Assembly (NCBI GenBank): GCA_964546845.1
Contig: CAZJMY010000424.1
Coordinates: 23,672-87,671, forward strand
DNA: 64,000 nucleotides
Reading direction: 5' to 3'
Source of the DNA: an uncultured Myxococcales bacterium
GTDB taxonomy: Bacteria; Myxococcota_A; Polyangia; Fen-1088
This document shows positions 51,196 through 58,132 of the stretch, one piece after another. The position numbers were made by a program, and so were the translations under genes. Below the pieces are notes generated by a model. It was not told the origin of the DNA. It did not search any database and saw only the letters and a list, made by a program, of their open reading frames with translations. Position 1 is the stretch's first letter, and every line of letters begins with the position of its first letter.

Positions 51196-51657
51196 ATGAC
51201 GAGCACCGAGCAGGATCCAAAGCTTCGGGCGCTGGTCGAACGATACAAGGTCTGCTGGCAGGTCTACCCCGAATGGTCGCGAATCGGCGGCGAGCGCAGG
51301 CAGACTGGCGTCGCGATCGAGCTGTACGGGACGCACGAGCCGACAGGGATCGTCCCGACCGCGGGATGCAAGCACTGCATCCCGGTCATGCAGGCTCTCC
51401 TGACGATCGCGGACGACCTCTCGCTTCTGGCTGGTCGGCAGCTCCTCTCTGTCCGCGCTCACAGCGGGATCGAGTACGCCCTCGAAAGGGGTGCGCGGCC
51501 CGACATCGTCGTGACCCTCGCCTTTGGCGCGGCCACCGACGGGCCCGGCGGGTGGGAGGCGCCGGTCCAGGCGGCCGGCGCGCGACTCCGTGCGCTCGGA
51601 GTGAGAGAACGCTCGTGGCGGCAGGGCGACGAGCCCTCCGGGGGGCAATCCAAGTGA
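51196..51657 (+). CDS. hypothetical protein (153 aa) bridging cusA and the ATPase operon
   Basis: ATG 5 nt after GGGAGGGG. The stop sits in a GTGA overlap with the atpD start. No motif recognised. Confidence 0.5.
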
Positions 51658-53072
51658 CGGACGCGGGATCGCGGCTGGGAAGTGTCCTGCGCGTGCGCGG
51701 GTCCGTCGTCGACGTCGTCTTCGGGGAGGGCGAGCCTCCGTTCGTCCACGAGGCGCTCGAGGTGATCTCCGAGGGCACCGAGCCGCTGGTGCTCGAGGTC
51801 CAGCAACACCTCGATCCTCATACGGTCCGCACGGTGGTCCTCCAGGTCGCTTCGGGCCTGCGACGAGGCGCCTCTGTCAAGCGAACGGGCCGGCCGCTCA
51901 TGATGCCGGTAGGCGATGCGCTCCTCGGTCGTCTTGTCGACGTGCTCGGGCGTCCGATCGACGGCGGGCCTGGCTTTGGTCCCGAGGTTCCGCGGTTGCC
52001 GATTCATCGCCCGGCACCGGCCTTCCAGGAGCAGGGCGGCCGGCGCGAGCCCTTCCTCACGGGGATCAAGGTGATCGACCTGCTCGCGCCGCTCGCCCGA
52101 GGTGGCAAGGCGGGCATGTTCGGCGGCGCCGGCGTCGGCAAGACGGTGCTAATCATGGAGCTGATACGCACGACCGTCGCGCAGCACGGCGGCGTCTCTG
52201 TGTTCGCCGGAGTCGGGGAGCGCTCACGAGAGGGCCACGAGCTCCTCCTCGAGCTCCGCGGCTCCGGCATGCTTGCGCGCACCGCCCTGGTCTTCGGGCA
52301 GATGAACGAGCCGCCCGGTGCACGGTGGCGCGTCGCCCTGTCCGCGCTCACGGTGGCGGAGCAGTTTCGCGACGGGGCGCGACAGGACGTGCTGCTGCTC
52401 ATGGACAACGTGTTCCGCTTCGTGCAGGCCGGCAGCGAGGTGTCGGGACTGCTCGGGAGACTGCCCTCCCGCGTGGGTTACCAACCCACGTTGGCGAGCG
52501 AGATCGCTGAGCTGCAAGAGCGGATCGCGCACGCCGGGGGCGCGTCGATCACCGCCATCGAGGCCGTATACGTCCCCGCCGACGACTACACCGATCCGGC
52601 GGTGGCCACGACCTTCAGCCACCTCGACTCGTCCATCGTCTTGTCACGCGAGATGGCGAGCGAGGGGCTGTATCCCGCCATCGATCCGCTTGACTCGACA
52701 TCGACCTTGCTCGACCCGCGCGTCGTCGGCCGCGAGCATTTCGACGTCGCCCAGGCCGTCCGCCGCGCCATCGCACACTATCGCGAGCTCCAGGAGGTCA
52801 TCGCCCTGCTGGGGATCGAGGAGCTGTCCGCCGAAGATCGAACGACTGTGGGTCGCGCGCGGCGGCTCATTCGATTTCTGACCCAGCCCTTTCAGGTCAC
52901 GGAGGCTTTCACGGGACACGAGGGGCGAACCGTTCCGCTGGCGGAGACGCTCGCGGGGTGTCGGGCGATCCTCGATGGCGCCGGCGATGCCATGCCCGAG
53001 TCGGCCTTTTACATGATCGGCGCGTTTGCCGAAGCCAAGAGCAAGGCCACCGAAAAGGAGAGAGCCTCGTGA
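51654..53072 (+). CDS. atpD: F-type (N-ATPase) ATP synthase beta subunit
   Basis: GTG start overlapping the upstream stop. Walker [12 protein letters not shown]. Beta-type C-terminus [10 protein letters not shown]. Confidence 0.92.
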
Positions 53073-53521
53073 GACTGCGGATTGCCACCCCCCGCGGGCT
53101 CGCGGTCGACGCGTCGGACGTCCAGTACGTCAGGGCCGAGGATGCGACCGGCGCGTTCGGTATTCAGCCCGGCCACACGGAGCTCGTCACGACGCTCGTG
53201 GTCTCGGTCATGATGTGGCGCGACGCGGGCGGCACCGAGCACCATGCCGCCCTTCGCGGAGGGGTGTTACGCGTCTCCGATGGCCGCCTGGTCGAGGTCG
53301 CAGCGCGCGAGGCCGTCGCTGGCGAGCGCCTCGAGGATCTGGAAGGCGCCGTGCTGGCCGGCATGCGGCACGCCGCCGATGCGGAGGCCAAGGCGCGGAC
53401 GCGGGCCGCGCAGCTGCACGCGTCCGTGGTGCGACGCCTCTATCGCTTCGTTCGCAGTGAGCGCGGAACGCGTCCACTCGCCCTCGGCGGATCGGGCGAC
53501 GAGATGGAGGCCAGAAGGTGA
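53069..53521 (+). CDS. atpC: ATP synthase epsilon subunit
   Basis: GTGA overlap. N-terminal beta-sandwich pattern ([16 protein letters not shown]) and C-terminal helices. Position directly after beta. Confidence 0.78.
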
Positions 53522-55756: not shown

Positions 55757-57275
55757 CGTTACCGAACAGGTTGTCGGGCGCCTCGAGCGGGCGCGTGCGG
55801 CCGCCGAAGGTCTGACAACCGAGCCGGTCGAGCGCGAGCGCGGCACCGTCGAGACCGTGGGTGCGGGGGTGGTCACCGTCTCCGGGCTCCCCAGCACGCG
55901 TCTCGATGAGATCCTCCGCCTGTCCGGCGACAGCTACGCGATGGCGGTCGTGCTCGACGTCGATCGAATCGGCGCCGTGCTCCTCGATCGCGCCGACACC
56001 GTCACCGCCGGCGGGGAGGTCAGCGGCACCGGCGAGGTCCTCCGGGTGCCGGTCGGCGAGGGGCTGCTCGGTCGGATCGTCGATCCGCTCGGCCGGCCGC
56101 TCGACGGCGGCCCTGCGATCGAGGCGGTCCGGCGCGATCCCATCGAGCGTCCGGCACCCACGATCATCGAGCGGGACCTCGTGACCGAGCCCTTGCACAC
56201 GGGCCTCTTGGTGGTCGATGCGATGATCCCCATCGGGCGCGGGCAACGCGAGCTCATCATCGGGGATCGGGTGACGGGCAAGACGCAGGTGGCGTTGGAC
56301 GCGGTGCTGGCGCAGCGAACGTCGGACGTGGTGTGCGTCTACGCCGCGGTAGGGCAGAAGGCATCCGCGATCGGACGTCTGATCGAGGAGGTCAAGGCCT
56401 CGGGACCGTTCGATCGCTGCATCTTCGTCGTGGCAGAGGCCGACGACCAGCCCGGCATGCAATGGATCGCTCCCTACGCCGCCTGCACGATGGCGGAGTA
56501 CTTCCGCGACCGCGGCGGCCACGCGCTGCTCATCATCGACGACCTGACGAAGCACGCGATCGTCCACCGCGAACTCTCGCTCTTGCTCCGGAACCCTCCC
56601 GGCCGTGAAGCCTACCCGGGCGACGTCTTCTATCTCCACGCGCGCCTACTCGAGCGCGCCGCCAAGCTGTCGAAGGAGAGGGGCGGCGGCTCGCTCACCG
56701 CGCTGCCGATCGCCGAGACGCAGGGCGGGAACATGAGCGCATACATTCCGACCAACCTCATTTCGATCACCGATGGGCAGATCTACCTCGAGACCAAGTT
56801 GTTTCACGAGGGACAGAAGCCGGCCGTCAATGTGGGCAAGAGCGTCAGTCGCGTGGGGGGTAAGACCCAGCCTCACGCTATTCGCTCCCTCGCCGGGAGC
56901 CTGCGCCTCGACTACGCGCAGTTCCTAGAGTTGGAGGTGTTCGCTCGATTCGGCCAGGTCCTCGACCCCCGAACCGAGCAGGCCCTCGACCGCGGGCGCC
57001 GGATCCGCGCGGCCCTCGAGCAGCCGCAGTCCGAGCCGCATGCGCTGGTGACTGAGGCGGCCATCCTCGTCGCGGTCCGGGAGGGGGTGCTCGACGGACT
57101 ACCTCTTCCCAAAGTGGCGCCCTTCATGCGAGCGCTGGGATCAGATCTGAGCACATGGGAGCCTGGCCTCGTCGAGCGCGTCGAGCACACGGGCCGCCTC
57201 GACGAGCCGGATCGCACCCGCATTGTCGACTGGCTCCGCCGGCGGGCGCAGGCAATTGCGAAGGGCGGAGGCTAG
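55749..57275 (+). CDS. atpA: ATP synthase alpha subunit
   Basis: The ATG at 55749 overlaps the atpF end. Walker A GDRVTGKTQVAL. Alpha-type core. Confidence 0.92.
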   Translation: MPSVTEQVVGRLERARAAAEGLTTEPVERERGTVETVGAGVVTVSGLPSTRLDEILRLSGDSYAMAVVLDVDRIGAVLLDRADTVTAGGEVSGTGEVLRVPVGEGLLGRIVDPLGRPLDGGPAIEAVRRDPIERPAPTIIERDLVTEPLHTGLLVVDAMIPIGRGQRELIIGDRVTGKTQVALDAVLAQRTSDVVCVYAAVGQKASAIGRLIEEVKASGPFDRCIFVVAEADDQPGMQWIAPYAACTMAEYFRDRGGHALLIIDDLTKHAIVHRELSLLLRNPPGREAYPGDVFYLHARLLERAAKLSKERGGGSLTALPIAETQGGNMSAYIPTNLISITDGQIYLETKLFHEGQKPAVNVGKSVSRVGGKTQPHAIRSLAGSLRLDYAQFLELEVFARFGQVLDPRTEQALDRGRRIRAALEQPQSEPHALVTEAAILVAVREGVLDGLPLPKVAPFMRALGSDLSTWEPGLVERVEHTGRLDEPDRTRIVDWLRRRAQAIAKGGG

Positions 57276-57277
57276 CG

Positions 57278-58132
57278 ATGGAGCGCGCGTCCGAGCTGCA
57301 AGGCCGAATCCACAACCTCGAAGAGCTGGGGGAGGTCGTTGGCGCGCTGCGCTCGGTGTCGGCGGCGCGTGTTCAGCAGGCGCACGGGATCCTCGATGCC
57401 GTTCGCCAATACACCTCGATAATCCAGGACGCGCTCGGTGAAGCGACCCGTGGTCCTTCGCTCCCGCCCCGCGCCGCTGAGGGTTTCGAGACGACAGGCC
57501 TCGTCGTCGCGTTCGGCTCGGAGCATGGTTTTGTCGGCGCCTTCAACGACCGCATCCTCGAGCACGCCGCGATCCAGCGCAGGCCCGGTGACGGCCTCCT
57601 GGTCGTCGGATCGCGGGCCGTGCTGGCCGCCAACGAACGTCGCGAGGTGATCGCCTGGAGCTGTCCCATGGCGTCCCAGGTCGGCGGGCTCGATGAGGTC
57701 GCGCTCCAGGTGGCGGAGGAGCTCGGGCGCAGCGGCGCAGAGCGCGAGCCAGGACGCGTGATTCTCGTCTATACCCGCAGCTCGGGCGGTCCAACCTGGC
57801 GAATCGTCACCGAGACCCTGCTTCCTGTCGACATTCGCGCCTATTCGCCGACTCGGCTGGATCGACCTATGGCGCTCTCGAACCTTCCGGCGCGGCTCCT
57901 GATAGACGGTCTGGTCGGCGAGCTGCTATTCGCCCAGCTCGCCCATGCCGCCACCGAGTCCTTCGCCAGCGAGAACGCCGCCCGGCTCGCCGCCATGGAG
58001 TCCGCGACCGACAACATCGAGGACAAGCTCGGTGGCCTCGGTCGTATCGAGCGCGAGCTTCGGCAGGAAGAGATCACTACCGAGCTGCTGGACATCGTAA
58101 CTGGAGCCGAGGCGATCGGCGAGGAGCACTGA
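57278..58132 (+). CDS. atpG: ATP synthase gamma subunit
   Basis: ATG at 57278, 2 nt after the atpA stop. N-terminal (RIHNLEELGEVVGALRSVSAARV) and C-terminal (QEEITTELLDIVTGAEA) coiled-coil helices. Confidence 0.85.
   Translation: MERASELQGRIHNLEELGEVVGALRSVSAARVQQAHGILDAVRQYTSIIQDALGEATRGPSLPPRAAEGFETTGLVVAFGSEHGFVGAFNDRILEHAAIQRRPGDGLLVVGSRAVLAANERREVIAWSCPMASQVGGLDEVALQVAEELGRSGAEREPGRVILVYTRSSGGPTWRIVTETLLPVDIRAYSPTRLDRPMALSNLPARLLIDGLVGELLFAQLAHAATESFASENAARLAAMESATDNIEDKLGGLGRIERELRQEEITTELLDIVTGAEAIGEEH

Follow-up and report, generated by a model that had tools for sequence, protein, structure and literature searches.

An N-type rotary ATPase operon within a conserved cusCBA–phosphorylase gene array of an uncultured Myxococcales bacterium

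Introduction

N-type ATPases (N-ATPases) were defined as a family by Dibrova, Galperin and Mulkidjanian in 2010 (PMC2881411). According to that work, any genome with such an enzyme also has a canonical F- or A-type ATP synthase, the N-ATPase being the second copy; their operons move laterally as units; and Methanosarcina acetivorans grew and made ATP as before when the operon was deleted (PMC2881411). As late as 2025, what the N-type enzyme does and how it is built as a whole were still called unknown (PMC12229609). The present analysis concerns a complete operon of this type, atpDCQRBEFAG, found in a stretch of 64,000 nucleotides (nt), here called the window, from an uncultured Myxococcales bacterium (GTDB lineage Bacteria; Myxococcota_A; Polyangia; Fen-1088; assembly GCA_964546845.1, contig CAZJMY010000424.1, forward strand, positions 23,672 to 87,671). 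The operon is part of a longer run of genes that begins with the predicted copper/silver efflux genes cusCBA, continues through a small gene of no recognized family (orf163), and ends with a gene for an alpha-glucan phosphorylase carrying a YHS domain.

The closest described systems are found in Burkholderia and Azospirillum. The c-ring in the N-type ATPase from B. pseudomallei (Schulz et al. 2017, PMC5376962) has 17 subunits, is specific for H+, and carries Glu30, Glu61-Thr62-Met63 and Tyr66 at its ion site; the same ion-site reasoning has been used by others for an alphaproteobacterial N-ATPase (PMC9927469). Like the window operon, the B. pseudomallei type has the order atpDCQRBEFAG and a two-carboxylate site (E...ETMxxY), and it falls into the same subclade, with 100% support, represented in our trees by B. 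pyrrocinia (locus L094) and Paraburkholderia (L017). Relatives from the Burkholderia group are ∼64–65% identical to the window in beta, 55% in alpha and 67–71% in c, but 30–34% in b and gamma, and the Burkholderia operon is flanked by virulence genes, whereas that of the window is flanked by cusCBA, orf163 and the phosphorylase gene. The closest cultured relative found is Azospirillum sp. B510, listed as having an N-ATPase (PMC4154653), in which the operon lies on plasmid pAB510c. It shares the gene order and the ETMxxY site (beta 70%, c 77% identity) but occurs in an alphaproteobacterium, is plasmid-borne, and lies beside polyamine/agmatine genes, with neither orf163 nor a metal-efflux linkage.

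For comparison we took the N-ATPases of Na+ type from cyanobacteria and Methanosarcina (Dibrova et al. 2010), with a Picosynechococcus pAQ7-like plasmid (L092) and an Acaryochloris plasmid (L095). They have in common with the window the gene order, AtpQ and AtpR, the lack of delta, a long b subunit, the Glu in helix 1 of the c subunit and a place in the N clade. They differ in having a c subunit with ESTxxY and the full set of Na+ ligands, and their beta subunits, at 55–57% identity, are no closer to that of the window than are those of canonical F-ATPases. Their alpha subunit passes the ‘alternate F1F0’ model of NCBI, while that of the window does not. With canonical F1Fo enzymes (atpIBEFHAGDC) the window shares eight homologous core subunits, with all catalytic residues conserved, but it departs from them in gene order, in the absence of delta and AtpI, in the addition of AtpQ and AtpR, in a b subunit that is ∼80 amino acids (aa) longer, and in its separate clade.

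Results and Discussion

The atp operon and its gene array

Within a conserved cus array, the window encodes an N-type ATPase that is intact and belongs to the ETMxxY subclade. The nine atp genes lie on the plus strand and occupy positions 51654–58132 exactly, as determined from the listing of open reading frames and by mapping of in-frame starts. They belong to a series of 14 co-directional genes (45302–59975) in which the largest gap is 19 nt:

45302–46594, plus strand: CusC-like outer-membrane efflux protein, first gene of the array (PF02321 OEP); overlaps the next gene by 4 nt
46591–48042, plus strand: CusB-like membrane fusion protein (PF16576, 241 bits; best NCBIfam model NF007303 CusB)
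48039–51182, plus strand: CusA/CzcA-family heavy-metal RND transporter, 1047 aa (TIGR00914, 1144 bits, cutoff 701)
51196–51657, plus strand: orf163, soluble protein of ∼153 aa; overlaps atpD by 4 nt
51654–53072, plus strand: atpD, beta subunit, 472 aa, GTG start (TIGR01039, 636.6 bits; TIGR03305, 606.7 bits)
53069–53521, plus strand: atpC, epsilon subunit, 150 aa (TIGR03166 alt_F1F0_F1_eps, 108.5, cutoff 100.1; NF009981, 161.9, cutoff 160; PF02823)
53518–53799, plus strand: atpQ, 93 aa, two hydrophobic helices (PF09527, 45.5 bits, gathering threshold 26.6; TIGR02230, 49, cutoff 46.7)
53796–54080, plus strand: atpR, the hallmark subunit of N-ATPases, 94 aa (PF12966 AtpR, 30.7 bits, gathering threshold 26)
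54077–54751, plus strand: atpB, a subunit, 224 aa (PF00119; NF009955, 292 bits)
54757–54999, plus strand: atpE, c subunit, 80 aa (NF009998, 123.6, cutoff 116)
55019–55756, plus strand: atpF, long b subunit, 245 aa (PF00430 over residues 5–135)
55749–57275, plus strand: atpA, alpha subunit, 508 aa (NF009884, 701, cutoff 554; TIGR03324, 630.6)
57278–58132, plus strand: atpG, gamma subunit, 284 aa (PF00231, 146.5 bits; best NCBIfam model TIGR03323 alt_F1F0_F1_gam)
58134–59975, plus strand: YHS-domain alpha-glucan phosphorylase, 613 aa, closing the array; its start follows atpG by 1 nt

The same gene boundaries result from an independent gene call on three metagenomic contigs of identical sequence, and an identical 472-aa beta product is on record as P0001. 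The source contig is metagenomic, with a length of 141,850 bp. An initial annotation, made from the DNA alone, had given the operon the span and gene order listed above, and both are borne out by the GTG start of atpD, the stop of atpG and the Pfam and NCBIfam identities. Its two small membrane genes ahead of a, c, b, alpha and gamma are matched by PF09527 (AtpQ) and PF12966 (AtpR), and the missing delta gene that it pointed out is indeed absent, with no delta/OSCP match in the operon by Pfam or NCBIfam scans. It overstated the packing in describing nearly every junction as a 4-nt overlap: this is true of four of the eight internal junctions (D/C, C/Q, Q/R and R/B), while of the other four, three are gaps (5, 19 and 2 nt) and one is an overlap of 8 nt. 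As a unit, too, the operon was drawn too small, for the nine atp genes do run together but the co-directional array containing them extends from 45302 to 59975. Ribosome-binding-like GGAG motifs are present upstream of several of the atp start codons. In G+C content the operon (0.686) matches the window (0.679) and thus bears no compositional mark of recent transfer. An Rfam scan of the window gave no matches.

The first three genes form one operon that supplies an RND permease, an adaptor of CusB type and an outer-membrane factor. As in E. coli-type CusCBA systems, they stand in the order C-B-A and are joined by 4-nt overlaps. In contrast to those systems, no cusF was identified in the array, and the operon runs on into orf163, the atp genes and the phosphorylase gene. 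Going by family, cusCBA probably encodes a copper/silver exporter.

The rotary enzyme appears to be in working order. The beta subunit has intact motifs at GGAGVGKT157, GERSREG188 and EELSAED389, as well as a ten-residue motif at 247 (letters not shown), and its catalytic residues are present together with the Walker B Asp. Alpha has GDRVTGKT172 and SVSRVGG365, the latter containing the SRVGG arginine finger; the essential Arg of subunit a lies within MVRLFGN (residues 162–168); and the carboxylate of subunit c is present as E59. Judged by these motifs, the residues for catalysis and ion translocation are all intact, and a decayed copy is not indicated.

Assignment to the N-type family

The features that define N-ATPases were taken from Dibrova et al. 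(PMC2881411) and each was tested on the window. The gene order is D-C-Q-R-B-E-F-A-G, without a separate delta gene, and not the canonical atp(I)BEFHAGDC with separate delta. In an alignment with 22 other N-type AtpR proteins, R50 and R81 of the window protein correspond to the two membrane arginines conserved in nearly all of them. In place of atpI there is atpQ (PF09527), and no match to PF03899 was found among the proteins scanned. The b subunit, at 245 aa, lies in the range of the N-type sample (244–275 aa) rather than the canonical one (147–189 aa), and a profile–profile comparison with hhalign pairs its residues 173–243 with canonical delta, in the C-terminal domain of the latter (probability 97.2%, E 3e-11). 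In the c subunit, E26 aligns with the helix-1 Glu of other N-type c subunits. It also aligns with Q32 of Ilyobacter tartaricus, and so stands where the Na+-ligand Gln would be.

One further motif, ESTxxY, is said to hold for most N-ATPases but not all, and is not found in the window, which has E59-T60-M61-A-I-Y64. Since B. pseudomallei is an accepted N-ATPase with ETMxxY, this absence counts against Na+ coupling and not against membership. The identity proposed by the initial annotation is thus upheld by the order, AtpR, AtpQ, the lack of delta, the delta-like b, the helix-1 Glu and, as described below, the clustering. The best explanation overall, and one that can be held with considerable confidence from these sequence features, is a complete and apparently functional N-type (N1No) rotary ATPase of the Burkholderia/Azospirillum subclade. 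By sequence, no N-type AtpR, b or c chain is present in the PDB.

Phylogeny and annotation models

Comparison loci came from a scan of one genome per GTDB species, to which N-ATPases from annotated plasmids were added (Picosynechococcus, Acaryochloris, Azospirillum sp. B510, Burkholderia pyrrocinia and others). There is a clear break in the results of the scan: all 19 GTDB-species loci with a beta identity of 62–70% have the N gene order (19/19), and all matches at ≤59% with enough flanking sequence have the canonical one. Neighbour-joining trees (200 bootstraps) of 76 taxa, 25 of N order and 51 canonical, were built for alpha, for beta and for the two concatenated. In each of them the split between N-order and F-order enzymes has 100% bootstrap, and the window sits in a subclade, itself supported at 100%, with the alpha- and betaproteobacterial enzymes (Burkholderia, Azospirillum). 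The phylogeny of alpha and beta with known N-ATPases, suggested at the outset as a check on the initial annotation, therefore places the window among them. The closest beta subunits (83–87% identity) are all metagenomic; more distant homologs carry labels that suggest Myxococcota as the host group (Polyangiaceae for beta at 75–78% identity).

The NCBIfam ‘alternate F1F0’ models (TIGR03305, TIGR03324, TIGR03306, TIGR03322, TIGR03321, TIGR03323 and TIGR03166) do not recover the operon as a whole. Only one of the seven, that for epsilon (TIGR03166, 108.5 against a cutoff of 100.1), is passed. Scores and cutoffs for the others are 607/752 for beta, 631/750.5 for alpha, 218/302 for a, 101/131 for c, 90/225 for b and 120/282 for gamma. 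The beta model (cutoff 752) is also failed, at 589–652 bits, by ten N-order relatives (L017, L020, L004, L009–L012, L022, L084 and L087), Paraburkholderia among them. These failures mean that the cutoffs exclude the whole Burkholderia/Azospirillum-type subclade and not the window alone; they capture the cyanobacterial type. Because such scores are below cutoff, PGAP labels operons of this kind as plain F0F1 ATP synthase. The result is a systematic annotation gap, in which N-type pumps are named ordinary ATP synthases in public genomes, and which can mislead metabolic reconstructions.

Two further plasmid loci depart from the usual subunit set. On a plasmid of the haloarchaeon Salinigranum marinum (L098, 7902–14714) the order is atpD-C-Q-B-E-F-A-G, without atpR, and the c subunit gene is double-sized (549 nt, two hairpins). 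Plasmid pSCD of Sulfuricella denitrificans (L097, 1–13959) has an N-order operon, also without atpR, that is co-directional with and downstream of several sulfur-related genes and a gene for an RND efflux permease. This may be a further case of a rotary ATPase associated with an RND pump.

Conservation of the linkage

The arrangement cusCBA-orf163-atpDCQRBEFAG-YHS-phosphorylase recurs in at least four other loci, all metagenomic (L085, L102, L088 and the P0005 contig), and is here called context class 1. Wherever these loci include enough upstream sequence, a CsoR-family gene is found before the array. Relative to the window, L085, L102 and L088 show ∼77–81% identity in DNA and 58–93% in protein. 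In L088, orf163 is inverted and the contig ends in atpF. In a second context class (L099–L101, L106, L107 and a JGI contig), orf163 is divergent from atpD, with 36–74 bp between them, and the longer of these contigs have no intact cusA beside the pair. In the JGI contig of this class, orf163 is followed by a glycosyltransferase gene with a faint YHS match and by a CsoR-family gene. Within the library searched, no paper was found that links N-ATPases with copper efflux or describes the cus-atp-phosphorylase arrangement. The fusion of an N-ATPase into a conserved, predicted copper/silver efflux operon is a new arrangement of a known enzyme family.

orf163

The orf163 product has three invariant cysteines, C20, C58 and C61, of which the last two form a CxxC pair, and two nearly invariant histidines, H47 and H89. 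It matches no Pfam or NCBIfam model. Its close homologs (35 found) are all metagenomic, and in 13 of the 13 contigs with enough flanking sequence the gene adjoins atpD, in three different orientations. A profile search uncovered a wider family of ∼150-aa proteins without a Pfam model, and Pfam scans of these remote relatives likewise gave no family; a scan of metagenomes with the profile returned two short loci only. The AlphaFold2 model has a pLDDT of 84, and a Foldseek search of the PDB with it gave no meaningful match (best E 0.02, TM-score <0.45). It may be conjectured that orf163 is a candidate sensor, regulator or assembly/accessory factor of this N-ATPase lineage.

The YHS-domain phosphorylase

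In the last protein of the array, the YHS domain (PF04945) covers residues 1–40 and the phosphorylase is recognized by TIGR02094 (538.6, cutoff 191.7). The fusion of these two domains is widespread, occurring in Cyanobacteria, Ramlibacter, Acidobacteriota and Myxococcota. In Pseudanabaena PCC 6802 (L104, 7779–11860), the YHS-phosphorylase gene directly follows that of a copper P-type ATPase with a YHS domain, in a metal island and near an ICMT-like gene; the window contains the same pair of copper ATPase and ICMT-like genes at 33218–36740. Considering the window array and the Pseudanabaena neighbourhood together, the YHS-phosphorylase recurs beside ATP-consuming copper exporters, which suggests a general, undescribed link between glycogen mobilization and copper export. 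A literature search found no paper describing a YHS-phosphorylase beside copper exporters.

On the P0005 contig (JGI 3300056388, 16493–21419), the YHS-phosphorylase gene is followed by genes for phosphoketolase (XFP) and acetate kinase. The three enzymes make up a predicted route to substrate-level ATP.

Coupling ion and direction

The ion site of the window c subunit is made up of E26, from helix 1, and E59-T60-M61-x-x-Y64, from helix 2. In the c alignment, ETMxxY is the form seen in Burkholderia, Azospirillum and the window lineage, and ESTxxY that of cyanobacterial N-ATPases. As the site is of the type present in the H+-specific c17 ring of B. pseudomallei, H+ is likelier than Na+ as the coupling ion, and the residues make a proton-coupled enzyme a likely reading. 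The window enzyme is probably an ordinary member of a probable proton-type subclade of a known family. It would, on a reading that is somewhat favoured, hydrolyse ATP to expel protons rather than make ATP; ATP-driven pumping is indicated by the role proposed for the family and by the M. acetivorans deletion, which lacked an ATP-synthesis phenotype.

Some variation exists at this site. In one cus-linked relative (L088, 13113–13382) the c subunit has ESMxxY instead of ETMxxY, as well as a 9-residue C-terminal extension, so the residue after Glu varies within the lineage. Direct transport of Cu+/Ag+ by the c-ring, involving Met61, was considered and rejected as very unlikely: ETMxxY also occurs in many operons without a cus link, and in the Burkholderia ring the site behaves like one for protons.

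A possible role in metal efflux

Conservation of the 14-gene array suggests a coupling model that we regard as possible, though at less than even chance: the pump would be co-expressed with the CusCBA Cu/Ag exporter and the YHS-tagged glycogen phosphorylase, with the net effect that RND efflux is driven indirectly by ATP. Since CusA works by proton/metal antiport, protons entering through it would be pumped out again by the N-ATPase, which would restore the gradient and keep the membrane energized when metal stress cripples respiration. The source of ATP would be glycogen breakdown.

A more far-reaching version, which must be considered unlikely as it stands, has the N-ATPase recruited as the power unit of a self-contained, respiration-independent metal-resistance module. 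Stored glucan would be mobilized by the YHS-tagged glycogen phosphorylase (the XFP and acetate kinase genes follow it in one relative), substrate-level ATP would feed the proton-pumping N-ATPase, the proton gradient would power Cu/Ag efflux by CusCBA, and the orphan Cys3/His2 protein orf163 would act as sensor or regulator. If true, this would for the first time give an N-type ATPase a concrete role in physiology, and would be an example of an RND pump turned ATP-dependent by operon fusion. N-type ATPases were defined in 2010, and the conserved fusion with cus offers a testable hypothesis for their function: cusCBA, a glycogen phosphorylase and a Cys/His protein together suggest the job of keeping the membrane energized for metal efflux while respiration is compromised.

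Alternative explanations

Three other views of the enzyme itself were weighed. It is extremely improbable that the operon encodes the primary F1Fo ATP synthase of the organism in a rearranged gene order. The beta subunit does pass TIGR01039, the generic model for atpD (636.6, cutoff 462.85), and six of the seven ‘alternate F1F0’ models are below cutoff for the window subunits, but recognized N-ATPases of the Burkholderia/Azospirillum relatives fall below the same cutoffs, the split from canonical enzymes has full bootstrap support, and the operon has AtpR, no delta, and a b subunit with a delta-like domain fused to it. A Na+-exporting enzyme for salt tolerance, as originally proposed for the family, is quite improbable here: ETMxxY in the window is without the Ser and Thr that cyanobacterial N-ATPases keep in the Na+ motif, the sole tested ring with this exact type of site is H+-specific (PMC5376962), and the genomic context is one of metal efflux and not of Na+ or osmolyte handling. 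These points have to be set against the possible provision of two Na+ ligands by Glu26 in helix 1, as argued for N-ATPases without the Thr of ESTxxY (PMC2881411), and against the Aphanothece enzyme, which is Na+-dependent according to its citation in PMC5376962. The third view, that the enzyme is not a pump but an ATP synthase with a high H+/ATP ratio, working at low proton-motive force (pmf) as in metal-damaged respiration, seems rather improbable. In its favour, the c17 ring of the Burkholderia homolog gives 5.7 H+ per ATP (PMC5376962), high ratios permit ATP to be made at low pmf, every residue that synthesis requires is intact, and the function of N-type enzymes was stated to be unknown in 2025 (PMC12229609). 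It is opposed by the M. acetivorans deletion, without effect on growth or ATP synthesis (PMC2881411), and by the reports of N-ATPases only alongside a canonical synthase; moreover, a pmf consumer placed with the pmf-consuming CusA and with genes for glycogen breakdown and acetate kinase fits worse than does a pump running on substrate-level ATP.

Several points weigh against the favoured explanation as a whole, an N-type proton pump coupled to metal efflux. H+ specificity is drawn from one characterized relative, with a c subunit ∼71% identical. A large c-ring pumps only against a modest gradient and favours synthesis at normal pmf; because a ring of 17 subunits would limit the pumping gradient in this way, the direction of operation is uncertain and the low-pmf synthase is a live rival. 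The trees are neighbour-joining, and their canonical taxa were picked by similarity to the beta subunit of the window. The CsoR-family regulator upstream of the array has no cysteines where CsoR binds Cu(I), and keeps a single His. A scan of 44000–61500, uninformative on transcript boundaries, found no sigma-70-like sites, and terminator-like hairpins no commoner than in shuffled sequence. In a third context class (L084, L087 and L090, beta 75–84% identical) the nine genes stand alone, without cus, orf163 or phosphorylase. The flanks of 24 other, more distant N-type operons are not linked to metal efflux or glucan metabolism; when 127 flank proteins of 23 other N-type operons were classified by Pfam, neither a shared neighbour nor a tie to metals or glucans emerged. 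With the flanks of other N-type operons unlinked, any coupling of cus and N-ATPase would be lineage-specific and could reflect the assembly of an island. The N-ATPase may, then, be a free-standing module that landed in a metal island, its adjacency to cusCBA and phosphorylase being without functional meaning, and this has a chance not far short of even. The three relatives with the operon alone, the heterogeneous neighbours elsewhere and the lateral movement of N-ATPase operons as units (PMC2881411) are all in line with it, and so is L088, where the inversion of orf163 means that the atp genes need their own promoter. Against mere adjacency, and for a functional coupling, at least five genomes, including that of the window, retain the array, with proteins 58–93% identical to those of the window where measured, a divergence at which gene order usually decays unless selected. 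Its junctions are overlaps or gaps of 1–19 nt, and the YHS-phosphorylase accompanies a copper ATPase in a cyanobacterium too.

The surrounding heavy-metal island

By its gene content, the window is a predicted heavy-metal resistance island. Apart from the array it carries two more RND permease genes, one of them in a complete OEP-adaptor-RND set. These and the other genes of note are as follows:

8462–11713, minus strand: RND pump of the heavy-metal island
15827–22713, minus strand: set of OEP, CusB-like adaptor with HMBD domain, and 1269-aa RND protein
33218–35599: copper P1B-ATPase with YHS and HMBD domains
36042–36740: ICMT-like methyltransferase
37464–41047: MacB-like ABC exporter and adaptor
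43210–43713 and 43646–44128, minus strand: two paralogous small proteins of ∼160 aa, just upstream of the CsoR-family gene
44335–44616, plus strand: CsoR/RcnR-family repressor, GTG start (PF02583, 72.9 bits), 686 nt upstream of the array
59991–60356, minus strand: cupredoxin, weak match to CopI, directly downstream of the array and convergent with it
60477–60959: c-type cytochrome-like gene
61282–62787: outer-membrane efflux gene near the end of the window

In the 686 nt that separate the CsoR-family gene from the array, a search turned up no more than weak palindromes. Orthologs of this regulator, 60–70% identical, lie upstream of the same array in L085 (2606–2881) and L088 (3253–3528). The copy of the paralogous pair that was scanned has no match in Pfam; both proteins have a hydrophobic N-terminus resembling a signal peptide, followed by repeats rich in Lys, Ala and Glu.

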